The translations under genes and the position numbers were made by a program. 64,000 bases of DNA. Source: an uncultured Acidimicrobiaceae bacterium (GTDB lineage Bacteria > Actinomycetota > Acidimicrobiia > Acidimicrobiales > RAAP-2). The notes under the pieces are model-generated. The model was not told the DNA's origin. It did not search any database and saw only the letters and a list, made by a program, of their open reading frames with translations. The number at the start of each line of letters is the position of its first letter. Within the stretch, counting starts at the first letter, position 1. The stretch lies in assembly GCA_963802735.1 (NCBI GenBank), contig CAWDJY010000017.1, forward strand, positions 94,521 through 158,520, in the 5' to 3' direction. Of this stretch, positions 2 through 48,833 are shown in pieces.

Positions 2-3407
<3,406 letters not shown>

Positions 3408-23503: not shown

Positions 23504-25629
23504 CCGACGGCGACTACCGCGGTCGATTCCTCAACAGCCTCGCCTTCGGACTCGACCGCTTCCAGACCGAGGCGATCGACGCCGTGGACGAACACGTCAA
23601 CGTATTGGTGAGCGCCCCCACGGGTTCGGGTAAGACGTTGATCGCCAACTACGCCATCGGCCGCATCTTCGAACGCGGCGAACGCGCCTTCTACACAACG
23701 CCGCTCAAGGCGCTCTCCAACCAGAAGTACGGCGAACTCTGCGCTCTCTACGGGGAGCGCCGCGTCGGACTCCTCACCGGGGACGTGTCGATCAACGGCG
23801 GCGCCGAGGTCGTGGTCATGACGACCGAAGTGCTGCGTAACATGCTGCTGACCGAATCGCACCAGCTCAACACCCTGGGTCTCGTCGTCCTCGACGAGGT
23901 GCACTACCTCCAGGACCCGTTTCGCGGGGGCGTGTGGGAAGAGGTCATCATCTTGACCCCCGCCGCGGTGCGTTTCGTTGCGCTCTCGGCCACGATCGGC
24001 AACGCCAACTTCATCGGGGAGTGGTTCGCCGAGGTCCGCGGCCCCACGGCGATCATCGTGGAGAACGAGCGACCGATCCAATTGCATAATCACCTCGCCG
24101 TGATACGACGGGGCCAGTCCGCGGTCGAGATCGTGGACCTGCTCGACGGCCAGCGACTCTCGGACGAGGCCCGCCGCGTCGACAACCTCATGAAGGCGAC
24201 GAGGAAGTTCCGGCCCGGTCCGAAGTGGAAGGGACCGAAGACCAGCGCGCCGCCGCCGCCGTTTCGCGCGCCGCGGCGCAGTGAACTCCTCCACGCGCTC
24301 GAGCGCGACGACCTCTTGCCGGTCATCGTGTTCATCTTCTCTCGCGCGGCCTGTGATGACGCCGCCCACCAGTGCCGACGCGACGGGTTGATGTTCACCA
24401 CGCCCGAAGAACGGCGCGACATCGAAGCCATCGCCCAGTCGCGCCTCGTCGACTTCTCCGACGACGACCTCAAGGCACTCGAGTACGCGGACTTCATCGA
24501 CTGCCTGCGGCGTGGCCTCGCCATGCACCACGCCGGCATGGTGCCCGCGTTCCGAGAGATCGTCGAGACGTGCTTCGAGCTGAACCTGCTCGCCGTGGTC
24601 TTCGCCACCGAGACGCTCGCGCTGGGCGTCAACATGCCCGCTCGCTCAGTCGCGCTGGAGCGGTTCTCGAAGTACTCCGACGCCGGCCGCAAGTTCCTCA
24701 CCAGTGGCGAGTACTCGCAGATGACCGGCCGCGCCGGACGGCGCGGACTCGACGACGAGGGTCACGCGATCGTCTGCTTCGCGCCCGAGGTCGCCCTGAT
24801 GGACGTGGGGCGCGTCGCGCTCGCCCCGCCGTCGGACCTGCACTCATCCTTTCGACCGACCTACAACTTCACCGCCAACCTGATCAATCACTTCGAATAC
24901 GACACGGCGCTCGAGGTCGTCCAGCGCTCCTACGCGCAGTTCGAGACGGACCATCGCCCGACGGGCAACAAGCGGCCCCTCGGTGACCAGATGGTCGCGC
25001 GCCATCACGTCCTCGAGGAGCTCGGCTACGCCGACGGCTGGCACCTAACCAATCAGGGCCAGCTCCTACGTTCGATCTATCACGAGTGTGACCTGCTCAT
25101 CGCCGAGTCGATCACGACCGGCGTCTTCGAGGGCCTGGAGCCGGCACAACTGGCCGGCCTGTTGTCGTGCTTCGTGTTCGAGTCCAAGCGCGCCGGGCGC
25201 CTCGCGAACGCCGCGCGACAGGTGACCACCAAGAAGAAGCGCACTCTGAACGACCGGCTCGGTCACCAGCGCCGCGGCAACCTGAGCGACCGGCTCTCCG
25301 AGATCGCCGTCACCGCGCTCGCAATCCAGGAGATCGAGAGCCGATTCAAGGTTCCGGGTGCCAAGGAGCCCGACGGTAAATTCGCCACCACCATCGCGGC
25401 CTGGGCCCGGGGCGCCTCGCTCGGGACGGTCCTGGACCTGGCCGACGTCGAGGTCGGCCAGACCTCGCCCGGTGACTTCGTGCGAAACGCCAAGCAGGTC
25501 GCCGACCTCTGTGAGCAACTGGCCCGCATCAGTGACCTCACCTCAGTCGCCGAAGTGGCCGCCCAGGCCCGTGACGCGGTCCTACGCAGCGTCGTGGCGG
25601 GCTATTCGAGCGTCCACCCGCGCGCCTGA
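23500..25629 (+). CDS. helY: Ski2-like DEAD/DEAH-box helicase (HelY-like)
   Basis: Walker A APTGSGKT, DEVH box (VLDEVHY), SAT, and the conserved tatC-helY neighbourhood. Confidence 0.85.
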   Translation: MTDGDYRGRFLNSLAFGLDRFQTEAIDAVDEHVNVLVSAPTGSGKTLIANYAIGRIFERGERAFYTTPLKALSNQKYGELCALYGERRVGLLTGDVSINGGAEVVVMTTEVLRNMLLTESHQLNTLGLVVLDEVHYLQDPFRGGVWEEVIILTPAAVRFVALSATIGNANFIGEWFAEVRGPTAIIVENERPIQLHNHLAVIRRGQSAVEIVDLLDGQRLSDEARRVDNLMKATRKFRPGPKWKGPKTSAPPPPFRAPRRSELLHALERDDLLPVIVFIFSRAACDDAAHQCRRDGLMFTTPEERRDIEAIAQSRLVDFSDDDLKALEYADFIDCLRRGLAMHHAGMVPAFREIVETCFELNLLAVVFATETLALGVNMPARSVALERFSKYSDAGRKFLTSGEYSQMTGRAGRRGLDDEGHAIVCFAPEVALMDVGRVALAPPSDLHSSFRPTYNFTANLINHFEYDTALEVVQRSYAQFETDHRPTGNKRPLGDQMVARHHVLEELGYADGWHLTNQGQLLRSIYHECDLLIAESITTGVFEGLEPAQLAGLLSCFVFESKRAGRLANAARQVTTKKKRTLNDRLGHQRRGNLSDRLSEIAVTALAIQEIESRFKVPGAKEPDGKFATTIAAWARGASLGTVLDLADVEVGQTSPGDFVRNAKQVADLCEQLARISDLTSVAEVAAQARDAVLRSVVAGYSSVHPRA

Positions 25630-32573: not shown

Positions 32574-33020
32574 ATGCGCGCCCACATCACCCTCTCCCCG
32601 AAACAGTTTGGTCTCGCGATGCTGTTCGTCGCGCTCGGCGGCGGCGCCGGCACGTTGGTTCGCGACCTGCTTTTGATGATCAATACGAGCAGCATCCCTC
32701 GAGGCACGGCGGTCTATTCGACCCCGGACTGGACGCATCAGATTCCCTGGGTGCTGCTCGCGATCAACACAGTCGGCGTGTTCGTTGCGACGGACCTCCT
32801 GCGGCACCGCTTGCGACACCATGATCCGAACGATCCAATGCGATTGCTGCTCGTCACAGGGTTCTTGGGCGGACTGACGTCCTATTCGGGCCTCTTCGTC
32901 GATCTAGCCGCACTCTGGCACCTGACCATAGGCGGGTGTCTTTTGGTGGCCGCAGGGGCCATCCTGAGCGGCCTTCTTGCGGGCATGCTCGGCTTGGGTC
33001 GCCATCGGCGACGAACATGA
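32574..33020 (+). CDS. crcB: Fluoride channel CrcB/FluC (subunit 1)
   Basis: 4-TM small protein with GFLGGLTSYS motif. Confidence 0.85.
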   Translation: MRAHITLSPKQFGLAMLFVALGGGAGTLVRDLLLMINTSSIPRGTAVYSTPDWTHQIPWVLLAINTVGVFVATDLLRHRLRHHDPNDPMRLLLVTGFLGGLTSYSGLFVDLAALWHLTIGGCLLVAAGAILSGLLAGMLGLGRHRRRT

Positions 33021-33376
33021 CGCTTTTACTGATTTCCATCGCCGGCGCAGTGGGCTGTGTTGTTAGGTACACGTTCGAGTACCTCGTTCGACGAAATCAT
33101 CCGACGAGTCGGCCGTGGGCCACGGCTGCGGCGAACGCACTGGGTACCGGCATTGCCGGGTTTGCCGCGTATCGCCTGGTGCCACTTGGCGACGCGAACA
33201 TTCGAGCGGTGGTGTTAACGGGATTTTGTGGGGGATTGACCACCTTCTCATCCGCACTCGCGGTTCCGGTGATCTTGCAGCGTGAACACCATTGGGGATA
33301 CGCAGCAGCTCTCATCACCACTACCCCACTCCTTTGTTCTGGGATGTTCCTCCTAGGAATGTCACTCGCTCACTGA
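33017..33376 (+). CDS. crcB: Fluoride channel CrcB/FluC (subunit 2)
   Basis: ATGA overlap with the first crcB. GFCGGLTTFS motif. Confidence 0.85.
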   Translation: MTLLLISIAGAVGCVVRYTFEYLVRRNHPTSRPWATAAANALGTGIAGFAAYRLVPLGDANIRAVVLTGFCGGLTTFSSALAVPVILQREHHWGYAAALITTTPLLCSGMFLLGMSLAH

Positions 33377-33433
33377 CGACACAATTCCGGTGAACGACTC
33401 CCCCACCCTTGTTCGGCCATAATCCGTGCGGGT

Positions 33434-34867
33434 TCACGTCGGACCTCCGACACCAACATTCTCCGGTACCTTCAGTCCGACTTCCCAGAGCAGGACGTTT
33501 ATCCAAGGACTACCGGCCACTTTGACCTCCAAATGATCGGGAAACACCTTTACGCACTCCACGAGGTTCTCGACAAGGATGCGCCGTTCACGCTGGTCTG
33601 CCTCTGCCCACACCACTTCCATATCAAGATCGGCAAGAATGCGCGCGACCTCCTCGAAGCGGACCTCTAATTCGGTCTTCAGTCGCTCCGCGTCGTCATC
33701 TATTGCGATCTGTTGGCGAACCGCCTCTATCGCCACCGCGATCCGCGTTTCCTCCTGCTGAAAGCCATCTTGGCTGACCTTCTGCGCGTAGTAGAGGTCG
33801 AAGAGTTTTCGCCGTTCCTCGTTGAGTGCCTTCATCGTCTTCGCCGGTGCTGCCCGTCGGGTCCGGCGCGGCAGTCCCGCCGCGTCCGGTCCCCCACCGG
33901 CCAACCGCCGTCGGATTGCGCTGCGAAGGCTCTCATCGTGACCGACCAGGCGAAGTCCCTTGACCGCTGCCCGAGCCAGTCCCAGGTTGCTTCGTGACGG
34001 CTGATCGCAGCCCTGGCCCCGGTGACGACACTTGTAGGTGAGATTTCTTTTGCCATTTTGCGCCACGACCATCTTTCGATTGCACAGGCCGCAGACAACA
34101 CGACCCGAGAGCGGATCACTCGACCGACGGACGCCCTTCGCCGTGCCCCGGTGCGCGTTCTGCCACTCCTCCTCGCTCACGAGCGGCTCGTGTCTGCCGT
34201 CGTACCACTTATCTTTGCGCAAGACCTCGCCGCGATAGATGCGCGAATCCAAAATCGACTTGACGGTGGAGTACTTAAGGCCAGTCCGCTCTTCAATCAC
34301 GCGATACGACAGTCGCTCACCTCGGAGTCGGAAGCACTCGATCACGAGCGCGGCGTCGACGTTCGGCACGAGTAGTCCGTTGACGAGGTCGTAACCGGTC
34401 TTCGGACGATTGATCCAGCGGCCTTCCTTCACCGCCCGGTCGAGACCCATGCTGACGTTCTCCGAGAGCGCCTCGCGGTAGTACTCCGCCTGTCCGCCCA
34501 TCATCGAGAAGAACCACCGACCCGCCGGAGTTGACAGGTCGAGGTTCTCACAGACCGAGTGCAGCGTGACGTGGTGCTTGTCGAACTTGTCGCGCAGCTC
34601 CATCAAGTCACGGAGGTTTCGCGAGAGTCGGTCGAGCTTCCACACGATGACGTGCGTAACGTGGCCCGCTTCAACCGCCGCGAGCAACTGCTGTAGACCC
34701 GGGCGCAGCATGTTCTTGCCCGAGATACCGGGATCAGAGATGACGGTGATATCGCCCAAGTCGTGTAAGTCCGAATAGGCCCGGAGTTTGTCCGTCTGCC
34801 CCTCGATCGACCAGCCCTCCGCCGCTTGTTCCTCCGTCGAGACTCGACAGTACGCCAGGGTTAGCAC
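33434..34867 (-). CDS. Large serine recombinase
   Basis: Resolvase catalytic N-terminus (LAYCRVSTEEQ, VWKLDRLSRN), recombinase domain, zinc ribbon CGLCNRKM...YKCRHRGQGC, C-terminal coiled coil. Confidence 0.92.
   Translation of the reverse strand: MLTLAYCRVSTEEQAAEGWSIEGQTDKLRAYSDLHDLGDITVISDPGISGKNMLRPGLQQLLAAVEAGHVTHVIVWKLDRLSRNLRDLMELRDKFDKHHVTLHSVCENLDLSTPAGRWFFSMMGGQAEYYREALSENVSMGLDRAVKEGRWINRPKTGYDLVNGLLVPNVDAALVIECFRLRGERLSYRVIEERTGLKYSTVKSILDSRIYRGEVLRKDKWYDGRHEPLVSEEEWQNAHRGTAKGVRRSSDPLSGRVVCGLCNRKMVVAQNGKRNLTYKCRHRGQGCDQPSRSNLGLARAAVKGLRLVGHDESLRSAIRRRLAGGGPDAAGLPRRTRRAAPAKTMKALNEERRKLFDLYYAQKVSQDGFQQEETRIAVAIEAVRQQIAIDDDAERLKTELEVRFEEVARILADLDMEVVWAEADQRERRILVENLVECVKVFPDHLEVKVAGSPWINVLLWEVGLKVPENVGVGGPT
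33441..33466 (-). repeat. Inverted copy (S0) of the cassette-array repeat core inside the last 10 codons of the recombinase gene
   Basis: Minus strand reads ccGGAGAATGTtggtGTCGGaggtcc. CGGAGAATGT (10/10) plus GTCGG (5/5) sit at the same 4-nt spacing as in the array repeats. Confidence 0.6.
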
Positions 34868-34960: not shown

Positions 34961-36015
34961 TCATAAGAGTTCCAAACTTCGACGCTTTTGCCAGATGCGA
35001 TGGTCCGTCGACACGTGCGTCTCCTTGGCGTAGCGCCCGAGGTAGTCCTTTAGGACTACGAGCAGTTCCGCCTCCGAGTGGCAGTCGCTCAGGGCACCAA
35101 AACGAGCCACGTAGCCAACAAAGGCCGGCATCATCTTCGCCAATTCACCGCGTTGCTTACCTCTATAGGTGCGCTCCAGTCCCATCGCGCCCTCACTGAT
35201 CCGCGCGTGTCGCACGTCCTCCCATTCCGGTGCGAGTGGCCACCTCGATCGCGTGTGGTCGCCCGTTGGCACGCGATAGGAGAGCCACGTCGTCAAGTAC
35301 GACCAGAGCGCGCCCGTCGCGTCGAGGACCTCGTCAGGATCATCCAGTCCGAACTCGCGTAGAGCGCCTCGCAGCACCTCGAACTCCAAGCGCAACACGT
35401 CGCGCGCCGGGTCGTAGGTGTCGTTCCACATCTCTTGCACGTACTGCGCACCAGAAGAGACGATCTCAATCGTCTTGTTGTAGAGGCGGGCGTCCACCGT
35501 GCCCGAGGAGCGCTTCCCGAATTTCAGTCCGTTGAGCGTGCCATTCGCTTCAAACGTACCGAGGTCCGACGCTCGACAGACGAAGTGGGAGCGATCGTCG
35601 CCCGACAGGTCCCAGCCCTGGAAATCCGCGAACAGATCGATGCGACTCACCGTCAACTTCACCAAGCCGCACTCGTCTTCAATGAGGTCGCGGAAGCCCT
35701 GGACGGCCGCGCGCACTCCGACGCCGTGCAAGAACTCCGCGCGGGGTTGGATGCGAAAGGCCGGGAGGTTCAGGCTCGGTGAGACCCCGATACGGCCAAA
35801 GGGGTGTGTGAGGCAGTATCGGTGTTTCCCCCAGGCGTGCGGTGCCATGAGCATTTCCAAGGCTCCAAATTGGAAGGGGGGCTGCCGTCAAGTTCTTGCG
35901 CGAGGCTGCGAGAGGTCTCGAGCCGTGCGAGGAGGGAGTCCGGTAGTGGCGCGCGCCCGGTGAGATAGATCGCGTCGACTCCGGAGGCCACTTCGTTCAA
36001 AATCGGTACTCTCAC
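34961..36015 (-). pseudogene. Rep_trans-type replication initiation protein, split by a frameshift at a C6 run
   Basis: C-terminal ORF has SRIDLFADF and ARLYNKTIEI motifs. The N-terminal 81-aa ORF (35770-36015) is in the +1-shifted frame. The G6/C6 run at 35876-35881 joins them if read as C7 or by -1 slippage. Confidence 0.7.
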
Positions 36016-36045: not shown

Positions 36046-36435
36046 TCACGTGTGCTTCTTCGGAGTACGTCCGACTTTGACCTGCGCTTCGACCCAGTAC
36101 GCCTTGGGGTCGATCGCGATGCCGGGCATCTGGTACACGTCCGGGTGTGAGCCGGTCATCTTGCGGAACCGGGCCACTTTGCGCCAGATCGTGGACTTGT
36201 GCATCCCAAACTCTTCGAGGCCCTCAAAGCCGCCGTAGAGATGCCACATGACCCAGAAGCCGATCATGTCCTCGACAATCTGCGTCCCTAGTGGGAGCGC
36301 AGCCGCCTCGATCTTCGCCTTGACGAAAGGAGGCACGCGTCGATCAACGGCCTTGACATAAGCGTTCCAGGCTTTTTTTGCGATGCCTTGACCTTCTGGC
36401 GTCTCCATCGGGTCGGAGCGGAAGTCTGAGTCCAT
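36046..36435 (-). CDS. HTH DNA-binding protein (excisionase/regulator-like)
   Basis: Start trimmed to ATG 36435. HKSTIWRKVARFRKMTG helix-turn-helix-like segment. Confidence 0.6.
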   Translation of the reverse strand: MDSDFRSDPMETPEGQGIAKKAWNAYVKAVDRRVPPFVKAKIEAAALPLGTQIVEDMIGFWVMWHLYGGFEGLEEFGMHKSTIWRKVARFRKMTGSHPDVYQMPGIAIDPKAYWVEAQVKVGRTPKKHT

Positions 36436-36483
36436 ACTCGCAGTATAGAGAGTATGTGTCACACTACATGCAATAGTTGATGT

Positions 36484-37440
36484 ATGTCCGAGATTGCACA
36501 TGAAGAGCCGGCGGTGCCTGACGACCCAATTTCGACGGCCATCATCAGTTTCGTAACTGGTGAGTGGATTAAGGGCGTTGTTCCGGGAACCGTTCCTCCA
36601 CTCTTTCACTACACGAACGCAGAAGGACTGAAAGGAATAGTTGAATCGAAGAGTCTTTGGGCATCGCACGTGGCGTTCATGAATGATCCGATGGAAATGA
36701 ATTATGCGGTTGCCCTTTGCAGAGAGATTTTATCGGAACACTTTCTTGGGCAAATGGAAGACGCAAGTCCTACGAAGATGGAAGTACTGCTATACGAATC
36801 GGTCACAAGGGCGCTTGATCGCATTGGTGACTTGCTGACAGGCTTCGTGTTCTGTTTTTGTGAGAAAGACGATCTTCTCAGCCAATGGCGAGGCTATGGA
36901 GACCTGTCCTCGGCCTTTTCGATTGGCATTGACCTCAATGAATTGGGAACACTGACTTTGGCTCGCGGCGACATTAGGAAGGTCGTCTACGAGTTGGAGC
37001 AGCAGAGGGAGATGATCCTTCGGTACATGACCGATTGGCTCCTAGTTCTTCAGAATCTGCTTGACCAAGATGCACTGGACTTCGCACAGCTTCAACTTCT
37101 AAGGGTTGGATTCATCATGGGATTTGCGCCGATTGCACTCTCAATCAAGGCGCCTGCCTTCCAAGAGGAATGCGAATGGAGACTTATCACTATTCGGATG
37201 CACACGTCTCAAGGGGACTCACGAGAGGACTATCCCACTCGTATACGAAATGGACTTATCGTTCCTTATCTGGTAATCAGTGAGCCGACGTCGCCTGATG
37301 CATCGCCCCGACTTCCAATTACGTCCGTGCGAGTTGGCCCCTCTTCAGATGTGACCGTGGCCCTAAGAGGAGTCAAGAACCTCCTCCGGTTTAACAAAAT
37401 TTTGGTCGATCCGGTACCGTCGGCGTTCCAACTTCGCTAG
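36484..37440 (+). CDS. DUF2971-family protein
   Basis: LFHYTNAEGLKGIVESKSLWASHVAFMNDPMEMNY matches the DUF2971 N-terminal signature as I recall it. Confidence 0.7.
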   Translation: MSEIAHEEPAVPDDPISTAIISFVTGEWIKGVVPGTVPPLFHYTNAEGLKGIVESKSLWASHVAFMNDPMEMNYAVALCREILSEHFLGQMEDASPTKMEVLLYESVTRALDRIGDLLTGFVFCFCEKDDLLSQWRGYGDLSSAFSIGIDLNELGTLTLARGDIRKVVYELEQQREMILRYMTDWLLVLQNLLDQDALDFAQLQLLRVGFIMGFAPIALSIKAPAFQEECEWRLITIRMHTSQGDSREDYPTRIRNGLIVPYLVISEPTSPDASPRLPITSVRVGPSSDVTVALRGVKNLLRFNKILVDPVPSAFQLR

Positions 37441-37576
37441 GCCATCGCGAAACTACGGCGGTCAATCCTTTGGAATTTTGCAATGCAGTTTGCGGGTGCT
37501 GTGATACAGGGATCGCACCCGACTATGCCTGGAGAGCCCTGACGCGCATCGCTGTTCTAATCTGCGTATCACTTCT

Positions 37577-38135: not shown

Positions 38136-38145
38136 ACTTGGTACA

Positions 38146-38175
38146 CCGCCACTCGGAGAATGTGCGGGTCGGTCC
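38146..38175 (+). repeat. Array repeat R1
   Basis: ccgccactcggagaatgtgcgggtcggtcc. Confidence 0.85.
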
Positions 38176-38471
38176 TGGAAACCTTTCTGTTTTCGAGACA
38201 GATGAACGGCTAGTTATCGGGTATCAACGGCAGCAAAAGCGGATACGGCAAAGGCACACACTGGGAGCCGCAACTTCACGACGAACTCCTCGAACGGGCT
38301 GGTACACCATAGTGTCCGCTCGACGACACCATCTTCATTCGCTTGAGAGAAACGTCACACCTGAAAGGAGGGCCAATGAAGGCTTGCACACCTGTTGCGT
38401 CAAGTGGGTCAAATAAAGGCGTGAAGTGAAAATCCAATCCGGATGCGACAATATCTTTGTGAAGGAGTCTC

Positions 38472-39389: not shown

Positions 39390-39439
39390 CCTTCGGCACC
39401 CCGTCTTGACCGGTGACTAATTACGCCGCCAGGCTCTGA

Positions 39440-39470
39440 GACGCCAGTCGGAGAATGTGTAAGTCGGCCC
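39440..39470 (+). repeat. Array repeat R2
   Basis: gacgccagtcggagaatgtgtaagtcggccc. It abuts the stop codon (39471-39473) of the minus-strand ORF. Confidence 0.85.
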
Positions 39471-40145
39471 TCAGAAGATGTTTGTCAATACGCTCATTGT
39501 CCGTCGAATTTTGTCCGCCTGAATTGCAGCCACCAATACGGCGTTCTCCCAGTTCCAAACATCAGATCGAGAACTGACTTGAATTGAAAAGTGAACTTGT
39601 CCGACATGGCTGAAAATCATGAGGACTTGGTACTTGACGTTCCCGGATTCGATCGATTCCTCATGAGCGAATACTGTCTCAAGACCTTCAATTCGGAGGT
39701 CTGTTAGATCTTGCGAGTGTGGTATCGCAACTCCCCTTGTCGGGTCATGAACGATGGAATCACTGGCTCGTTCAACGTTATGAATCGCGAGCCTTGCGGT
39801 GGAGAATGGGGTTACTCGTACAACCACGTCGCTCAAAGGATCTTGGCGCAGGAATTCGCGCTGGCCAGTTATTCCTCCTATCCCTTCGGCTCCCATTGGA
39901 GAGCGCACACGATTCACCGGACGAAATCCAACTTCTTTGACAAGTTTGAAGCCTTTGAAACCTTGAAGTTCCAAATCAATTTCGTCGATGAGCATCGCGA
40001 TCGAATACTTCTTCTTCCGCATTGGACCAAGCGACCTCAGCCAAAGTCGAACAAGCCGACCAAAGTCGCGCATACGCATACTCGGCGAAGCACTCACTGC
40101 CATAACTAAGGAACCTACTTCGGTATTCTCAACGGCATCGCTCAT
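39471..40145 (-). CDS. Hypothetical protein (cassette B)
   Basis: 224-aa ORF filling the R2-R3 interval. No family recognised. Confidence 0.55.
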   Translation of the reverse strand: MSDAVENTEVGSLVMAVSASPSMRMRDFGRLVRLWLRSLGPMRKKKYSIAMLIDEIDLELQGFKGFKLVKEVGFRPVNRVRSPMGAEGIGGITGQREFLRQDPLSDVVVRVTPFSTARLAIHNVERASDSIVHDPTRGVAIPHSQDLTDLRIEGLETVFAHEESIESGNVKYQVLMIFSHVGQVHFSIQVSSRSDVWNWENAVLVAAIQADKIRRTMSVLTNIF

Positions 40146-40206
40146 ATTGCCTCACGCAACCTTTCCGAGGACGTCTTGGGTAAGGATGTCACAATCCCCA
40201 GGGACT

Positions 40207-40239
40207 GATCCTCCACTCGGAGATTGTGTAGGTCGGCCC
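40207..40239 (+). repeat. Array repeat R3
   Basis: gatcctccactcggagattgtgtaggtcggccc. Confidence 0.85.
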
Positions 40240-40297
40240 AACGAACACCGAACATTCATTGATACTTCCTGCGTTCGCGGGCTGGAAGGATGAGCTT

Positions 40298-41311: not shown

Positions 41312-41398
41312 GGCAGAACTAGACGCCCGTCATTGCTGTGACGCATCGCGCGGACCTATCGGTCGACCGACTAGCGACCTCGCTGAATTCCACTTGCG

Positions 41399-41431
41399 GA
41401 TCCTCCACTCGGAGATTGTTGACGTCGGCCC
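41399..41431 (+). repeat. Array repeat R4
   Basis: gatcctccactcggagattgttgacgtcggccc. Confidence 0.85.
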
Positions 41432-41509
41432 GTCGACACATCACCCGGCTAAATGCGACGTCGCCTCGAGAGTTACCATGACCGCAATCGAGAAATCGAA
41501 AGGACCGCC

Positions 41510-42100
41510 ATGCTTGCATCCAAGAAAGATCAGCAAATCTTGCGTCGATTCCTTGTCGCAGCAGCGATGTTGTTGGGCGTCATTGGACTCAATTTCACTG
41601 CTAGTTCACCGATGGCCTCCGCCTTAAGCAACGTGCCGACGTGCGCCGATAGCCAGTTGGCCGTGGCTGTCGTGTCGTCGAGTGGAGCCTATTTCGCTGC
41701 AGGGAATGTCGGTATCCCTTTTGTCATCATCAACATCAGCAAGACAACTTGTTCGCTTAAGGGTTACCCAAGGCTCACCACGTATCCCGCTGCGTACAAG
41801 TTCAACAGGGTGCGGGTCACCGACGGTGGCGGCATGATCTTCGTTCAGGTGCGACCAAAAGTCGTGACCATCGGCGCCGGGGCTACCGCCTCGTTTGGAC
41901 TCAACTATGGAGATGCCTACGACCAGCAAGATCCGAATTCTGGACCGTGCATGACAAAGAAAATGCAGGTCTTCTTGCCAACCCGATCACATCCTTTCGC
42001 TCAGTCCTACTCAGCAACGGTAGATGTCAATTTTTGTTACGCGGGTTTCAAGTTCGAAATCACTTCAATCCAAAGCGGGCCTATCGCCAGACTGGGCTAG
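41510..42100 (+). CDS. Secreted DUF4232-like protein (cassette D)
   Basis: Signal peptide, then C..QL.V...G.AG......V.N.S...C.L.GYP pattern (TCADSQLAV...NISKTTCSLKGYPRL). Confidence 0.7.
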   Translation: MLASKKDQQILRRFLVAAAMLLGVIGLNFTASSPMASALSNVPTCADSQLAVAVVSSSGAYFAAGNVGIPFVIINISKTTCSLKGYPRLTTYPAAYKFNRVRVTDGGGMIFVQVRPKVVTIGAGATASFGLNYGDAYDQQDPNSGPCMTKKMQVFLPTRSHPFAQSYSATVDVNFCYAGFKFEITSIQSGPIARLG

Positions 42101-42115
42101 GTGATCGAGTCCGCA

Positions 42116-42147
42116 AGTCTCCAGTCAGAGATTGTTGACTTCGGTCC
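42116..42147 (+). repeat. Array repeat R5
   Basis: agtctccagtcagagattgttgacttcggtcc. Confidence 0.8.
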
Positions 42148-42174
42148 ACCAATGCGATCTCGAATTTCAGCCGG

Positions 42175-42855: not shown

Positions 42856-42892
42856 GCCCTCATCATGTCACTGACTCAATCCTCCACTGACT

Positions 42893-42925
42893 GATCCGCC
42901 AGTCGGAGAAAGTGCAGGTCTGCCC
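42893..42925 (+). repeat. Array repeat R6
   Basis: gatccgccagtcggagaaagtgcaggtctgccc. Confidence 0.8.
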
Positions 42926-43085
42926 AGCATGACTTGCATACAACGACGCCTTTGCTACCATCGCAATTGAGCGATGAGGCCCGCCCCTAAAACCGCCGAT
43001 TGACTTCGGTTGATGGCTTCTACCAGCGCAACACGAGAGCTGGTAGGGCCGGTCCGCCGTACCCCTGCCGTGACAGGAGGAAACG

Positions 43086-44297
43086 GTGAACATTTACTAC
43101 GTAATGGCGATTTGGATCGGAATGGCGCTCGTAGCGTCATTCATCAGCATCCGCGTCGGCGTCTCGGTCGCCCTCGTTGAGATCCTGGTCGGCGCGATCT
43201 GCGGCAACATCCCAGGGATCAGGGAGCACGTCCAACAGACGGACTACACGACCTTGCTGGCCGGTATTGGTTCGGTTCTGCTCACGTTCCTCGCCGGAGC
43301 AGAGATCGACCCCGTATCGCTCAAGAAGCATTGGAAGGCCAGCCTCTCGCTAGGTTTTGTCGCTTTCATCCTGCCGCTCATCGGAGCATTCTGTTTTGCG
43401 CGGTTCGTCTTCGACTGGAACTTCCACGGCTCAGAGATTGCCGGCATCGCCCTCAGTACGACGTCAGTAGCGGTGGTCTACGCGGTGATGGTCGAGACCG
43501 GACTCAATCGACACGACATCGGCAAGCTCATACTGGCCGCTTGTTTCGTCTGCGACCTCGGCACAGTTTTGGCGCTCGGGGGACTGTTTGCCACATACGG
43601 CTGGCTCTTACTCGTCTTTGTTGCCGTCACCACGCTTGTCCTTTCATTCCTGCCGAGGACGCTCCGCTGGGTCGTGGCCAACGTCGGGCACAGGGTGAGC
43701 GAACCCGAAGTGAAAATCATCTTTGTCGTCCTGCTGGGCCTTGGCGGCCTCGCCACAGCGGCGGGTAGCGAAGCGGTCTTGCCCGCCTACGTGGCCGGAC
43801 TAGTGGTGGCTGGGGTCTTCATGAACGACCGGGTCATCCTCGATCGAATCCGCACCATCGCCTTCGCTTTGCTCACGCCGTTTTTCTTCCTACGCGCAGG
43901 CACGCTCATCTCAGACTCGGCTCTCATCAAGGGCGCCGGAATCATCGGGACGCTGTTCCTCGTCAAGATGGTGACGAAATTCATTGGGCTCTGGCCCACG
44001 GCCACGGCGTTCAAGTTACCCAAGCGAGAGAGGGCATACACGACGTTGCTCATGGCGACGGGCTTGACCTTCGGGTCAATATCAGCGCTCTTTGGGTTGA
44101 CCCACCATTTCATCAATGAGGCCCAGTACACCGAACTTGTGACCGTGGTGATTCTGTCGGCCTTCGTGCCAACGTTGATCGCTCAGCAGTTCTTCCAGCC
44201 ATCGGTGGGCATTCCGATTGATGAAGAGGAATCTCTCGGCGAAGAAGACATCTCCCTGCCTCACCGTCCTAGAAAACCTGACGCGCCATCCGACTAG
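43086..44297 (+). CDS. Cation:proton antiporter (Na+/H+ exchanger family) (cassette F)
   Basis: SD AGGAGGA followed by GTG. Polytopic, about 11-12 TM, typical CPA-family sequence. Confidence 0.85.
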   Translation: MNIYYVMAIWIGMALVASFISIRVGVSVALVEILVGAICGNIPGIREHVQQTDYTTLLAGIGSVLLTFLAGAEIDPVSLKKHWKASLSLGFVAFILPLIGAFCFARFVFDWNFHGSEIAGIALSTTSVAVVYAVMVETGLNRHDIGKLILAACFVCDLGTVLALGGLFATYGWLLLVFVAVTTLVLSFLPRTLRWVVANVGHRVSEPEVKIIFVVLLGLGGLATAAGSEAVLPAYVAGLVVAGVFMNDRVILDRIRTIAFALLTPFFFLRAGTLISDSALIKGAGIIGTLFLVKMVTKFIGLWPTATAFKLPKRERAYTTLLMATGLTFGSISALFGLTHHFINEAQYTELVTVVILSAFVPTLIAQQFFQPSVGIPIDEEESLGEEDISLPHRPRKPDAPSD

Positions 44298-44328
44298 CCG
44301 ACTCTGGCTCTCCGCCTGACAACCTTGA

Positions 44329-44361
44329 AATCCGCCAGTCGGAGAATGTGTAGGTTGGCCC
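44329..44361 (+). repeat. Array repeat R7
   Basis: aatccgccagtcggagaatgtgtaggttggccc. Confidence 0.85.
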
Positions 44362-44443
44362 ACTGAACACTTCGAGTGGCGTACGTTGAGAATCGAAACA
44401 AGTTTCATGTGTTCGTAATCACCCCCAGTGCGATACTCGAGTC

Positions 44444-45067
44444 GTGCCTCGCGGGTTCGCTTTCTTGTTAGTGCTGTTTCTAACTACAGTCGTCGGACCT
44501 ACTGCGGCAACAGAAACCGGAGCCACCACGCTGAGCGCTTGTACCACCACACAGCTCAACGTGATCTCATACGACGTCTCGGTCGCCACGGGTAGCGTCG
44601 GTGATCTCTTCTGGGTTGCCGACATCGGCGCGCGCGCCTGTACCTTGCGCGGCTACCCGCGAGCTTCCTACTGGGGCAACTACGGCTCAGTCCAGTCGAA
44701 GAAGCCCGCTCAACCCCTGGTGGTTGGCGAGTCGCACGGCAGACGTCGCTTCGACTTCGCAGGTGTTGCGAATGATCGCGCGCTCCCCACGGTCACACTT
44801 TCGCCGGACGGTGCGATCGCATCGTTCTGGATATTCGGCACCGACATGCCGGGACGGCTCGCCGACGGTCACCTGTCAAGATGCATTGTTTCCTATGAGA
44901 TGTGGGTGTCGATGTCGAAGGGACCGTCGGCGGTCATTGTCACTCCGAAAAGAGCCGGGAACTTCGACTGGTGCGGGTCAGTTACGGTCTACCCGGTCGT
45001 CGAGGGCGACACGGGCTCGGACCCCGCATTTCCTCTCGACCGCATGTTCGGCCCAACTCTTCCCTGA
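44444..45067 (+). CDS. Secreted DUF4232-like protein (cassette G)
   Basis: Signal peptide, then ACTTTQLNV...GARACTLRGYPRA. Paralog class of cassette D. Confidence 0.7.
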   Translation: MPRGFAFLLVLFLTTVVGPTAATETGATTLSACTTTQLNVISYDVSVATGSVGDLFWVADIGARACTLRGYPRASYWGNYGSVQSKKPAQPLVVGESHGRRRFDFAGVANDRALPTVTLSPDGAIASFWIFGTDMPGRLADGHLSRCIVSYEMWVSMSKGPSAVIVTPKRAGNFDWCGSVTVYPVVEGDTGSDPAFPLDRMFGPTLP

Positions 45068-45129
45068 CTTCAAAGGTTGCCAGATTCTCTCAACCAATTC
45101 TCGTCAAACACAGACTCACTCCAAGTCCG

Positions 45130-45162
45130 GATTCGCCCATCGGAGAATGTGTACGTCGGTCC
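45130..45162 (+). repeat. Array repeat R8
   Basis: gattcgcccatcggagaatgtgtacgtcggtcc. Confidence 0.85.
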
Positions 45163-45204
45163 AACGATGCCGTTGCAACCTTGGATCAAACCGACAAATG
45201 GAAA

Positions 45205-45669: not shown

Positions 45670-45863
45670 CAACACCCCTTCTCTTCGGCTATGTCCTACC
45701 ACCACGAGAACTTTCCCGACGAGAGGGATTTCACATGATCGTCAATGATCCGCAGCCATCTTCGACCAGGCAGACAGGAGAGTGTCAACAGGGCGGCAAT
45801 TCGCGTGAAACGGCACCGTCACAATCATCGACCCTTTCAAGCGCAGCCTCATCTCCACTCTTT

Positions 45864-45896
45864 GAGTCGCAACTCGGAGATTGTGGACGTCGGCCC
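45864..45896 (+). repeat. Array repeat R9
   Basis: gagtcgcaactcggagattgtggacgtcggccc. Confidence 0.85.
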
Positions 45897-45974
45897 TTCG
45901 GTTAATTCAAATCGCCCTTTGGGTAACGGTTGCGAAATGCGCTACGAATACACCGAGGTATAAACTCCAGTCGG

Positions 45975-46012
45975 CAACAAGGGCTGGCGGGAATTGGGCT
46001 CCGCCCTTGTTG
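45975..46012. other. Perfect 10-bp inverted repeat (hairpin) in the ORF-less 291-bp unit
   Basis: CAACAAGGGC-n18-GCCCTTGTTG. A left-arm half-site actccagtcgg lies at 45964-45974 and overlaps its start. Confidence 0.6.
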
Positions 46013-46154
46013 ACCTACCCGCGGCGGGTTGGGAACTCATCATGGCAGTTCCCATCATCGGGCCGACCGCGATTATCCCGGGCACTTCCGGAAGCAGAAC
46101 AGAAGCCATCGTTCACTACTTTCGCCGACCATTAGATTGAGTCTCCCACGAACA

Positions 46155-46187
46155 GATTCGCCAGTCGGAGAATGTGTAGGTCGGCCC
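46155..46187 (+). repeat. Array repeat R10
   Basis: gattcgccagtcggagaatgtgtaggtcggccc (closest to the consensus). Confidence 0.88.
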
Positions 46188-46217
46188 TCTGATACGACCA
46201 AGTCCGATGCACCGTTG

Positions 46218-46997: not shown

Positions 46998-47108
46998 TGC
47001 ACCTCCTGCACATCGTCAAATCATCGGTTCTGTGAAATTCATGGTCAGATTATCCAAATAACCTTCACCCGATGACGGATTCTTCAAATTGGAGTGCCTC
47101 CGCTTCTG

Positions 47109-47141
47109 CAGTCGCCACTCGGAGATCGTTGATGACGGCCC
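47109..47141 (+). repeat. Array repeat R11
   Basis: cagtcgccactcggagatcgttgatgacggccc. Confidence 0.8.
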
Positions 47142-47182
47142 GGGGACCTCTTCGCCTTCGTCTTCGTCGTTATGGTGGTGAG

Positions 47183-48319
47183 GTGAAGGCGAGATTTGCC
47201 CTTAGAGCGTGTTCGCTGATCGCTGCGGCTCTGATTTTCCTCACTTCCATCGTCGTTTCCCCGGGCGCGCTCGCATCAACAGGGTCGATACAGACGCCGG
47301 TTCTTCTGATTCGAGCGGGATCGTCGAAGGTCTTCTATGTGGTGACGACAAGTGGCTGCCACTCGCCGGCGTGCTTACGAATGTACCGAACCGACAGTCA
47401 CGCGACGACATTTACGCGCGTATCGCCACCGCCGGTAGCTCGTGAGCAAGGAGGGACGGCGGGCACGACGTTGGACGACGTCGTTTTCGCCAACGCCAAC
47501 GATGGCTACGCCACCGTAGGGAATTACTCGCCGTCGGCTCTCTACGTGACGGTGAACGGCGCGCGGACGTGGCGACGAGTCATGGGCGCGAAGGATCTCA
47601 CGATCTCGGTGGCGATGACGAGGAATGAGATCTTCGTAACTTCGGTCACGTGTCGGCCCCGAAGCATCGTTTGTGGCCAGTTCACGACGCGACGCGCGTC
47701 GCTCACAGCGAAGGACTGGGTGACCCTGCCGAGGTTGTGGAAGACCGGGACGGGTCGGAAGGAAACGTACTACGGACCATCGCTGGCTGCCTTCGGCAAC
47801 ACGGTCTGGGAGCTCCAGACGGGGTCCGAGACGTACTTGTGGACCTCGCACGACAACGGGCGCACGTTTGCGCGGATAGAAGAGAGGTTTCCTGCACTCG
47901 CGAGCGTGAGCGGCTGCACGATCACGCCGAAGAGCTCCGTCTCGCTTTGGGCGGAGTGCCCAACGGGCATGCAGGAGTCCTTTTGGCACTCTGAGAACGG
48001 TGGTGCCACGTGGTCGCCGGCGAGCCCCAACGATCTCCAGTTCATGGGCACCGGCGGCGGTTCATTCGATCCGATTACGTCGAACGTGGCCGTGCTGGAC
48101 TACGGGGCCGTAGCGACTCCGCCCGACCTTTATCGAATCAGCGACGGAGGCGCACTCTTCACGCCTATCGGCGAAGTGCGCTGCACCAACGTTTCCCCAA
48201 TGATCTTCACGAACATATCTGACGGCCTGATGGTATGCGGCCTCAACTCCACGACGGTTGTACGTCGTACGAGCAACGGAGGAGCGACCTGGGAGAACGT
48301 TGCGCTGCCGCGATGGTGA
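47183..48319 (+). CDS. Secreted BNR/Asp-box repeat protein (cassette K)
   Basis: Signal peptide plus repeated SxDxGxTW-like boxes (TVNGARTW, SHDNGRTF, SENGGATW, TSNGGATW). GTG 47183 chosen. An alternative ATG at 47132 lies inside R11. Confidence 0.7.
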   Translation: MKARFALRACSLIAAALIFLTSIVVSPGALASTGSIQTPVLLIRAGSSKVFYVVTTSGCHSPACLRMYRTDSHATTFTRVSPPPVAREQGGTAGTTLDDVVFANANDGYATVGNYSPSALYVTVNGARTWRRVMGAKDLTISVAMTRNEIFVTSVTCRPRSIVCGQFTTRRASLTAKDWVTLPRLWKTGTGRKETYYGPSLAAFGNTVWELQTGSETYLWTSHDNGRTFARIEERFPALASVSGCTITPKSSVSLWAECPTGMQESFWHSENGGATWSPASPNDLQFMGTGGGSFDPITSNVAVLDYGAVATPPDLYRISDGGALFTPIGEVRCTNVSPMIFTNISDGLMVCGLNSTTVVRRTSNGGATWENVALPRW

Positions 48320-48371: not shown

Positions 48372-48560
48372 TCTCGGTTCGAGTGACGCTGCAAGAGCCA
48401 CGTCGAAGATCGTCGGGCAATCTTGTACGCCAAGTCCGTTCGAGGTGATACCTCTCGACGCACTCCGCGAGCAGCTGGCTGCCGTCTCGTTCATGTTTCA
48501 TTGCTAGAACGGTTCTATGCGTTGTCGACCAACACGTCACGAGCCAGGGACGCTCACGGG

Positions 48561-48833
48561 ATGATCCGTTTCGCCGTAAAGGTTCATCCCGGGTCGACCA
48601 CGATCAGCGTCGGCGGCAGCTACGACGGCGCTCTCCAGGTTCGTGTACGCGCCCGGGCGATCGACAACGCAGCGACGAATGAGGTGTGCGCCGTTCTCGC
48701 CGACGCCTTTGGCGTTCGCCCTGGTGCGGTGCGGTGCGTGCGAGGTGCACGTTCTCGAATCAAACTCATCGCTATTACGGGCAACGACGACGTCCTCGCG
48801 GCTCGGCTCGACACCCTGCTGTCGTCAAGCTAG
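48561..48833 (+). CDS. DUF167 (YggU-like) protein
   Basis: MIRFAVKVHPGS...IDNAATNEV...GARSRIKLI pattern. Confidence 0.75.
   Translation: MIRFAVKVHPGSTTISVGGSYDGALQVRVRARAIDNAATNEVCAVLADAFGVRPGAVRCVRGARSRIKLIAITGNDDVLAARLDTLLSSS

Follow-up and report, generated by a model that had tools for sequence, protein, structure and literature searches.

A probable integrative element of Acidimicrobiia with a large serine recombinase, a tRNA-Leu-derived attachment site and an integron-like cassette array

The locus described here lies in a 64,000-nucleotide stretch of DNA, hereafter the window, from an uncultured Acidimicrobiaceae bacterium (assembly GCA_963802735.1, contig CAWDJY010000017.1). It contains a short conserved core, made up of the gene of a large serine recombinase (LSR) and two genes upstream of it, and, beyond the core, a series of plus-strand repeats, R1 to R11, separating ten compact cassettes. 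An earlier note on the same DNA, made from the sequence alone, had drawn attention to an inverted copy of the repeat motif at the very end of the recombinase gene, which we call S0, and had proposed that recombination between S0 and the repeats inverts the intervening DNA. S0 is indeed the sequence link between the recombinase and the array. The properties of the two kinds of sites make it very likely that the locus is an LSR integrative element which targets tRNA-Leu and carries an integron-like cassette array run by the serine recombinase. Related loci are designated below by our own handles (L004 and the like).

Results

The recombinase gene and the site at its end

The recombinase gene (33434-34867, minus strand) encodes a protein of 477 amino acids with the Resolvase, Recombinase and Zn_ribbon_recom domains (PF00239, 2.4e-39; PF07508, 1.3e-4; PF13408, 3.6e-7). 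It matches the integrase family PHROG 95 (5e-89) and is a full-length protein of the serine integrase type. The R-x-S catalytic motif is found in the N-terminal sequence AYCRVSTEEQ (residues 5-14, N-terminal motif AYCRVST), of which R8, V9, S10 and T11 are invariant in 20 homologues. The CcrA, CcrB and CcrC models score the protein at 63-111 bits, the cut-offs of these families being 700-900.

The codons that close the reading frame, GTA CCG GAG AAT GTT GGT GTC GGA GGT CCG ACG TGA, are translated as V P E N V G V G G P T followed by the stop, and the minus strand from 33470 to 33434 reads ggtaCCGGAGAATGTTGGTGTCGGAGGTCCGACGTGA. The copy of the array motif noticed there is exact: the 10 and 5 specified nucleotides stand at 33447-33465 (minus strand) with the same 4-nt spacer as in the array. 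The whole 19-nt motif, CGGAGAATGT-N4-GTCGG, has five exact occurrences in the window, namely S0 on the minus strand and four array repeats on the plus strand. When up to three mismatches are allowed, the window holds 14 matches, where 3.8 are expected, and none of 100 dinucleotide shuffles reaches 14; the observation of the earlier note is confirmed. Two further matches, at 24856-24874 (minus strand, inside a conserved host gene) and at 34446-34464 (minus strand, inside the recombinase gene), were set aside as chance or coding similarity; both recur at the corresponding position in related loci.

S0 can be divided into a long arm, a central dinucleotide and a target-side arm. The long arm (x, a P-type half-site; 33446-33472, minus strand, aaggtacCGGAGAATGTTGGTGTCGGa) encodes the last recombinase codons KVPENVGVG, and its reverse complement, TCCGACACCAACATTCTCCG, starts with the acceptor 3' strand of tRNA-Leu(GAG) and CCA. 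The crossover dinucleotide (33444-33445), GG on the minus and CC on the plus strand, is the middle of the palindrome GTCGGA-GG-TCCGAC. The target-side arm (y, B-type; 33426-33443, minus strand, TCCGACGTGAACCCGCAC) is a tRNA-Leu T-arm-like fragment, which provides the codons for P and T and the TGA stop (33434-33436). The crossover GG falls two codons before the stop, so that the recombinase gene ends within the recombination site, one of the two possibilities that the earlier note had considered; the stop codon itself would lie beyond the crossover, within the target DNA.

The conservation of this region was followed in the 120 best homologues. The tail ...EVGLK(V/G)(P/S)E(N/I)VGVGG is kept in all of them, down to 59% identity, and directly after GVGG the proteins end with GT, end with PT or continue into variable unrelated extensions. 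These alternative tails agree with the proposal that recombination at S0 alters the 3' end of the reading frame. We then compared 80 genome loci with LSR relatives, almost all from metagenome-assembled genomes of Acidimicrobiia. An S0-type site stands at the end of the LSR gene in nearly every close relative, and an R-type site, which reads ...CCGCCAGTCGGAGAATGTGTAGGTCGGC-CC-TCCGACACC..., is found on the opposite strand, 2-6 kb upstream of the start of the LSR gene. When both are read on one strand, they are the two halves of one dyad. The homologous recombinases therefore have the tail and the repeat motif in common, as the note's reading required. The tail is not specific to recombinases that bear arrays, since a single partner site accompanies most of the homologues that possess it.

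The complete site would be an imperfect dyad of ~45 bp, CGGAGAATGT-N4-GTCGGa-GG-tCCGAC-N4-ACATTCTCCG, with a non-palindromic 2-bp crossover at its centre. The inverted copy of 10 + 5 nucleotides would accordingly represent the two recombinase-binding half-sites of one attP. Several details of the note give way to this description. It had continued the match beyond an extra codon (TCCgACG in S0, TCCaACG in R8), in a register that is off by 3 nt: TCCgACG is the other half-site past the central GG in S0, and the R8 letters are a T, the central CC and AACG. The related peptides read from the repeats are the mere translation of a shared DNA motif, the stops falling in the 4-nt spacer. Nor are the repeats relics of recombinase 3' ends: the similarity ends at the half-site, upstream of which the repeats read CGCCAGT and the recombinase coding sequence an unrelated AAGGTAC. 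S0 is, with high probability, the recombinase-proximal, attR-type junction of an integrated LSR element in which the attachment site extends into the 3' end of the recombinase gene.

The repeats and the cassettes of the window

The weight matrix of the array detects eleven strong sites on the plus strand, between 38.1 and 47.2 kb. Each of them consists of a long arm X (CGCCAGT-CGGAGAATGT-N4-GTCGGc), the same centre as S0 and a short, weak TCCGAC-like arm Y, and we consider it highly probable that each Rn is the junction type opposite to S0, i.e. attL-type. R1 (38142-38185, core start 38154), with its long arm X, centre CC at 38174-38175 and weak arm Y, would be the first of these attL-type sites and the end of the basic element. 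R2 (39437-39480, core start 39449, centre 39469-39470) closes cassette 1 (1295 bp, a 305-aa open reading frame (ORF) on the plus strand), R3 (40206-40249, core start 40218, centre 40238-40239) closes cassette 2 (769 bp, a 224-aa ORF, minus), and R4 (41398-41441, core start 41410, centre 41430-41431) closes cassette 3 (1192 bp, a 350-aa ORF, plus). They are followed by R5 (42114-42157, core start 42126, centre 42146-42147) with cassette 4 (716 bp, a DUF4232 gene, plus), R6 (42892-42935, core start 42904, centre 42924-42925) with cassette 5 (778 bp, a HAD hydrolase gene, minus), R7 (44328-44371, core start 44340, centre 44360-44361) with cassette 6 (1436 bp, a fluoride-riboswitch candidate and a Na_H_Exchanger gene, plus) and R8 (45129-45172, core start 45141, centre 45161-45162) with cassette 7 (801 bp, a second DUF4232 gene, plus). 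The series ends with R9 (45863-45906, core start 45875, centre 45895-45896) and cassette 8 (734 bp, a 166-aa ORF, minus), R10 (46154-46197, core start 46166, centre 46186-46187) and cassette 9 (291 bp, no convincing ORF), and R11 (47108-47151, core start 47120, centre 47140-47141), the last detectable site, with cassette 10 (954 bp, a methyltransferase gene, minus). All eleven sites are on the plus strand. The ten cassettes thus range from 291 to 1436 bp, nine of them hold one ORF, and the genes are distributed over both strands (five plus, four minus). The G+C content is 51-59% across 36-48 kb, as compared with ~65% in the flanks.

The twelfth repeat listed in the earlier note was not recovered: scanning with the weight matrix down to 4 bits finds no site past 47151, and the only 5-bit match is at 37379. 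This R-like match (37379-37412, plus strand) lies at the 3' end of a DUF2971 gene and may be a decayed site that splits the cargo between the core and R1. Folding of eight repeat regions as attC-like single-stranded hairpins gives z-scores of -1.3 to +1.0, which are not significant.

S0 and the repeats share one polarity

Serine recombinases such as those of phiC31 and Bxb1 cut at the dyad centre with a 2-bp stagger, and the identity of the dinucleotide decides whether the alignment of two sites is productive. The centres were compared in 38 related loci with a recognisable S0, for 21 of which the upstream partner R was found. GG at S0 pairs with CC at the nearest R in 17 of the 21, and GA at S0 pairs with TC at R in L003, L006 and L018; with one exception, to which we return in the Discussion, the partner sites share a non-palindromic central dinucleotide. 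The host tRNA alleles match the centre as well, L018 and L016 carrying ...CCCG-TC-TCCGAC. The outer motifs of the x and X arms also shift in parallel across subfamilies (GAGAATGT, GGGTTTTG, GTGCAATTTTG and others), which is expected if a single protein binds the two.

In the window, the plus strand reads CC at the centre of S0 (GG on the minus strand) and of all eleven repeats. S0 and every Rn are on this account arranged head-to-tail, and recombination between S0 and any Rn is predicted to excise the intervening DNA, not to invert it. The 19 nt that had suggested an inverted arrangement are one half-site, which S0 has on one side of the crossover and Rn on the other. The window sites show the organisation of serine-integrase dyads, with the GTCGGA-GG-TCCGAC centre and CGGAGAATGT-N4 arms, and not that of a shufflon or an invertase system: no functionally inverted sites are present, CC being on the plus strand throughout, and the cassettes are unrelated complete genes in place of alternative in-frame coding segments, the repeat 'peptides' containing stops.

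tRNA-Leu as the integration target

Of the 38 loci submitted to ARAGORN, 27 have a tRNA-Leu(GAG) on the strand opposite to the LSR gene. In most of them the final ~19 nt of the LSR gene are shared with the tRNA, and in a few the two are kilobases apart. The 3' end of this tRNA reads ...GGGTTCAAGTCCCGCC-TCCGACACCA. The arm of S0 inside the LSR gene is the reverse complement of the tRNA acceptor 3' strand and CCA, and would restore the tRNA after integration. The arm outside the LSR gene is the tRNA T-arm, whose complement, ACTTGA, supplies the stop codon and thereby explains the GVGG-GT endings of the homologues. In the tRNA-Leu loci, the R-type sites continue with TCCGACACC(A), the displaced original tRNA 3' end.

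Filled and empty sites can be compared in one related locus. L052 and L054 hold an intact tRNA-Leu with its native downstream flank, the tRNA being followed by GCGACAACCCCACGCGG. In L060, the long X arm is joined at CC to TCCGACACGCGACAACCCCACGCG, and identity of this R junction with L052 and L054 begins at CC-TCCGACACGCGACAACCCC. The comparison applies to L060, the locus of the window being outside it.

The tRNA scan found no tRNA gene in the window; at S0 there is a 29-nt fragment of the 3' half of tRNA-Leu(GAG) (33426-33454, CGTGCGGGTTCAcGTCggaCCTCCGACAC), situated downstream of crcB and devoid of the tRNA body. Three crossover-adjacent bases are altered in this fragment, which makes GTCGGA-GG-TCCGAC a perfect palindrome. 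T-arm-like arms similar to those of the window are seen at both element ends in L002, L006, L009, L028 and L035, implying a palindromic pseudo-attB that consists of two such arms, one inverted relative to the other. The same position, downstream of two crcB genes, is occupied by LSRs 59-84% identical to that of the window in L004, L010, L025 and L031. L025 has both host flanks in common with the window and an own, different array; host synteny resumes near 48.9 kb.

Cassettes are exchanged at the crossover dinucleotide

Scanning metagenomes with the R pattern yielded at least 120 stretches, and many of the matching contigs carry arrays of 3-10 R sites. Over 229 distinct R sites, most positions of the X-arm recognition motif are conserved at more than 90% and the central CC is present in 91%. 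The Y arm is informative in its first ~10 nt only, where its consensus, TCCGACACCA, is the natural attB arm. Spacing from R to R has its median at 735 bp. Of the 63 loci with several sites, 61 show one orientation throughout.

The borders of shared cassettes were then examined. The HAD cassette of the window is 96% identical in L198, where identity starts exactly at the CC of R5; to the left of it, the X arm and the neighbouring cassette are unrelated. In L100 this cassette has 94% identity, which stops exactly after the CC of R6; the tRNA remnant that follows it there implies that it is the terminal cassette of that array. The R7-R8 cassette shows the same CC-bounded identity with L166 and L092, the homology with L166 ending at the CC of R8. 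Among all pairs of 266 sites, 46 have the upstream cassette and the X arm in common and differ from the first position past CC; another 26 differ in the X arm but agree in the downstream cassette, starting at CC. At least six different neighbours occur downstream of one cassette end. Breakpoints placed exactly at CC identify the cassettes as discrete units, delimited as CC, weak arm, gene, X arm, CC, which are exchanged at the crossover dinucleotide.

Larger and smaller units are also encountered. In L035, L081/L082 and L085-L090, which are full elements in tandem or cointegrated, an inverted long arm directly adjoins S0. Long arms of a second family (GGTATCAGATCTG..., and CCGCCAGT farther outward) are found at either side of type-1 elements (L081 147/6302; L082; L085-L090; L019 2080/4359; L043 11403/12757) and indicate head-to-tail tandems or cointegrates of two LSR subfamilies at hybrid attP-like sites. 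At the other extreme, a recombinase-less mini-element stands alone in an attB-like site in L131 (~2330-2965, minus strand), in the order pseudo-tRNA arm, CC, full gene-side arm (TTCGACACCAACAATCTCCGA), hairpin motif (see below), one small secreted-protein gene and X arm with CC. Its presence in such a site suggests that small units can be moved in trans.

The core of the element

Upstream of the recombinase gene lies a gene (34961-36015, minus strand) whose product has 351 amino acids in homologues. In the window it is frameshifted near 35875-35881, residues 1-47 being in one frame and residues 46-351 in another, which makes it either a pseudogene or the result of an assembly error. The protein (299/351 aa) has no sequence match in Pfam, NCBIfam, PHROG or PDB. 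An AlphaFold model of the 351-aa form (pLDDT 92.4) was submitted to Foldseek and resembles the RepD/RepSTK1 initiators (4cij, E 4.5e-10; 4cwc, 3.3e-8; probability 1.0; TM 0.44-0.57). On this comparison of folds alone, we consider it a Rep_trans-like rolling-circle replication initiator. It is followed by a conserved core protein of 130 aa (36046-36438, minus strand) with a possible helix-turn-helix. The start of the 130-aa gene is marked by an inverted repeat, TACTCGC-N6-GmGAGTA (36435-36454), which may serve as an operator or a promoter, and the conserved core ends abruptly at 36454.

A hyper-conserved hairpin motif of ~38 nt (atGCAGTTTGCGGGTGCTGTgATACAGnnnnCGCACCC; 37483-37522, plus strand) is found in 56 loci, as a single copy per element situated between the core and the first R site; its start in the window is at 37485 (GCAGTTTGCGGGTGCTGTGATACAG...CGCACCC; 37485-37508). 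Its stem is of 7 bp, its loop is conserved, and it is directed toward the array. LSR subfamilies with an identity of only ~50% carry it in identical form; it is retained in the recombinase-less mini-element of L131 and in the Rep-less L047, and has no match in Rfam. These features make it a candidate rolling-circle double-strand origin or outward promoter.

Other features of the cargo and its surroundings

The fluoride riboswitch candidate of cassette 6 (42961-43029, plus strand) scores 29.5 bits against RF01734, below the gathering threshold of 34, with an E-value of 1e-4 over 20 kb. It is located just upstream of the Na_H_Exchanger gene (43086-44297). The island adjoins two host crcB (fluoride channel) genes at 32574-33376. 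The two DUF4232 genes (41453-42100 and 44444-45067) encode different secreted proteins within the same array, and the cassette of the former has homologues with 75% identity in L004, L123 and L183. The ORF-less cassette 9 (45897-46185) is kept at 75-81% in L025, L098 and L170 and could be non-coding, for instance a promoter or a small RNA. The mechanically called ORF at 47072-48319 crosses R11; its true start is likely the GTG at 47183, which would give a BNR/Asp-box protein with a signal peptide. This gene and a DUF167 gene (48423-48833) may belong either to the island or to the host.

Discussion

The model that we propose for the dynamics of the array combines canonical reactions only. It is favoured by the aspect of the sites themselves, each Rn looking like a proper attL and S0 like an attR, and we advance it tentatively, giving it a little less than an even chance. 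Excision between S0 and Rn, catalysed by this LSR, would release a circle carrying the LSR, the Rep_trans-like initiator, the small protein and the first n-1 cassettes. The circle would bear an attP of the form Xn-CC-x*; for S0 and R1 the predicted junction is ...CCGCCACTCGGAGAATGTGCGGGTCGGT-CC-TCCGACACCAACATTCTCCGGTACC..., and the same construction would apply to each Rn. The Rep-like protein could replicate this circle. The chromosome would retain an attB-like site, y-CC-Yn (in its scar form GTGCGGGTTCACGTCGGA-CC-Yn), together with the distal cassettes, and the next incoming element would integrate at this leftover site, thereby adding its own cassettes. Such nested excision and re-integration accounts for four features: the sites are asymmetrically conserved, they all point one way, breakpoints fall at CC, and the X arm travels with the upstream cassette.

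Several points weigh against this model or against the element interpretation as a whole. Canonical serine integrases do not carry out attL x attL recombination, and attL x attR recombination needs a directionality factor; none was identified, the 130-aa core protein being at most a candidate. The first acquisition of an X arm and a CC boundary by a gene is explained by no model. At the target, the S0 of the window adjoins the 29-nt tRNA-Leu 3' fragment and not a real tRNA, and the arm after R11 (GGGGACCTC...) does not obviously complete the site flanking S0. L022 is the exception to the co-variation of the centres, with GA at S0 and CC at the sole R found, which is far upstream. No excised circle or empty site was seen for the window element. 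Terminal repeats are likewise absent from the short contigs that carry LSR homologues: those with extended-tail homologues (L081-L090, L211, L212) had been considered as possible excised circular forms, and show tandem or hybrid junctions or decayed arms instead. Finally, the frameshift in the Rep-like gene implies that this copy of the element may be partly defective, and it may not replicate autonomously.

Could the cassettes move as free circles? Recombination between adjacent R sites would then excise a single X-CC-Y cassette, which would re-insert at any R, and S0 would serve only for the movement of the whole element. This agrees with the behaviour of the cassettes as single units, both neighbours of the HAD cassette being different in the window and in L198 and L100, with the cassette end that has at least six downstream partners, and with the recombinase-less single-gene unit of L131, which occupies an attB-like site with both long arms. 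However, known serine integrases block synapsis of the attL x attL type, and the asymmetry of the sites, a long X and a Y of ~10 nt with the attB consensus, is what is expected of attL and needs no new reaction. Two successive canonical events would likewise lead to the sharing of single cassettes. We therefore regard free cassette circles as a real but unlikely alternative.

A third explanation makes the repeats passive scars, without present function, left by repeated tandem integration at a restored tRNA or attB followed by deletion of the older cores. Tandem or cointegrated full elements do exist (L035, L081/L082, L085-L090), L004 carries degenerate repeats, and some Y arms resemble a decayed gene-side arm, such as those of R3 (AACGAACACCGAACATTC), of site 8440 in L047 and of some sites in L025. 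This origin was however rejected for the Y arms of the window as a whole, local alignment scores matching the null in 10 of the 11 sites. Over the 229 sites, moreover, the X arm is highly conserved while the rest of the cassette sequence is unrelated, and random deletions would not repeatedly leave compact single genes with breakpoints exactly at CC. This explanation is thus quite improbable.

The shufflon or invertase switch of the earlier note, in which inverted S0 and Rn would flip the intervening DNA and so give the recombinase alternative C-terminal tails, drew on the opposite strands of the 19-nt motif in S0 and Rn, and the alternative homologue tails after GVGG could be cited in its favour. 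Against it stand the nature of the motif, a half-site on opposite sides of the crossover, the common and co-varying polarity of the centres, and the stops in the repeat 'peptides'. Furthermore, the same S0/R pair flanks ordinary tRNA-Leu-integrated elements, with the displaced tRNA end outside, and the enzyme is a 477-aa LSR of the integrase type and not an invertase of ~190 aa. The note was right in its central intuition, namely that enzyme and array are connected by a site overlapping the recombinase stop; its inversion mechanism does not hold, and we judge it very improbable. A chance similarity between the recombinase end and the repeats, conceivable for a motif of 15 specified bases, deserves practically no credence in view of the shuffles, the recurrence of the relationship in dozens of loci and the co-variation of the two arms across subfamilies.

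How does the proposed element compare with known systems? As far as sequence can tell, its sites fit the serine-integrase paradigm on all the criteria tested. Like the phiC31, Bxb1 and A118/LI integrases, the LSR has resolvase, recombinase and zinc-ribbon domains; the attP is an imperfect dyad of ~45 bp whose non-palindromic 2-bp centre sets the polarity, and in both attL and attR a long arm from the element is combined with a shorter one from the target. Unlike in phiC31, Bxb1 and A118, the attP extends over the stop region of the integrase gene, whose last codons and stop are derived from target DNA, many attL-type sites are found in series in place of one, and the element targets the 3' end of a tRNA gene, which it restores. 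Targeting of tRNA 3' ends is typical of tyrosine integrases and unusual for serine integrases.

The array shares with integrons its compact, mostly single-gene cassettes with a recombination site at one end of each, a fixed crossover point that splits the site between neighbouring cassettes, the occurrence of the same cassette in different arrays with different neighbours, and a G+C content below that of the host. The cassettes are exchangeable and bounded by the crossover, as in integrons. Membership of the integrons nevertheless fails on three counts, i.e. the lack of a tyrosine integrase, of attC hairpins and of the attI/Pc layout. The recombinase is a serine recombinase, and no tyrosine recombinase domain is found among the ORFs of 33-49 kb; the sites are asymmetric double-strand half-site pairs and not single-strand hairpins; there is no attI beside the recombinase gene, S0 being at the end of the gene that faces away from the array. 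Unlike those of integrons, the cassette genes lie on either strand, and the whole platform is itself integrative and probably replicates by a rolling circle.

SCCmec and other SCC elements (CcrAB, CcrC) provide a second parallel, as they also use an LSR, insert at the 3' end of a conserved gene and restore that gene, and accrete tandem units between repeated att sequences, with alternative excision of one or several units. SCC units are however multi-gene and many kb long, whereas the units described here are single genes of ~0.3-1.4 kb; the SCC target is rlmH and not a tRNA-Leu or its fragment, and the LSR scores far below the Ccr cut-offs. Like the pSAM2-like actinomycete integrative and conjugative elements (AICEs), this is a small integrative element of Actinomycetota that combines integration into a tRNA gene with a rolling-circle initiator. 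Elements of the pSAM2 type encode a tyrosine integrase and transfer genes; the core of the present element comprises only the LSR, the Rep_trans-like protein and the 130-aa protein. With shufflons and invertases of the Hin/Gin type it shares repeated short sites near a site-specific recombinase gene, but the site polarity predicts deletion and integration, no alternative coding segments are present, and the enzyme is of another class and size. No description of a serine-recombinase cassette array, or of this element family, was found in the full-text literature searched, which was a limited collection.

To our knowledge, single-gene cassette arrays have so far been tied to integron tyrosine integrases only, mostly from Gram-negative bacteria. 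Could the present array be a second, independent invention of the integron principle, in which an LSR of Acidimicrobiia, borne on a small integrative element with rolling-circle replication, captures single-gene cassettes, stores them and reshuffles them? We put this forward with reserve, as a proposition nearly as likely to be true as false. The end of a cassette would then be a recombinase half-site of ~32 bp and the CC crossover; the cassettes would move singly, either as R x R circles or through nested attL x attR excision and re-integration, and the whole array would enter and leave chromosomes via the tRNA-Leu-mimicking site in the stop region of the recombinase gene.

In conclusion, our observations replace the shufflon-type reading of this locus by a concrete site model that can be checked. 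In uncultured Actinomycetota of peat and soil metagenomes, a serine integrase would follow the same genetic logic as integrons do, with breakpoints that are defined to the base pair in dozens of independent arrays. The element offers a testable system to learn how a strictly directional serine integrase handles many attL-type sites in series. As serine integrases are prized tools, the family, with its defined tRNA-derived attB, may yield new integrase/att pairs for genome engineering. The X arm and its CC, for their part, are a simple signature with which a large pool of mobile genes could be mined in the Acidimicrobiia.

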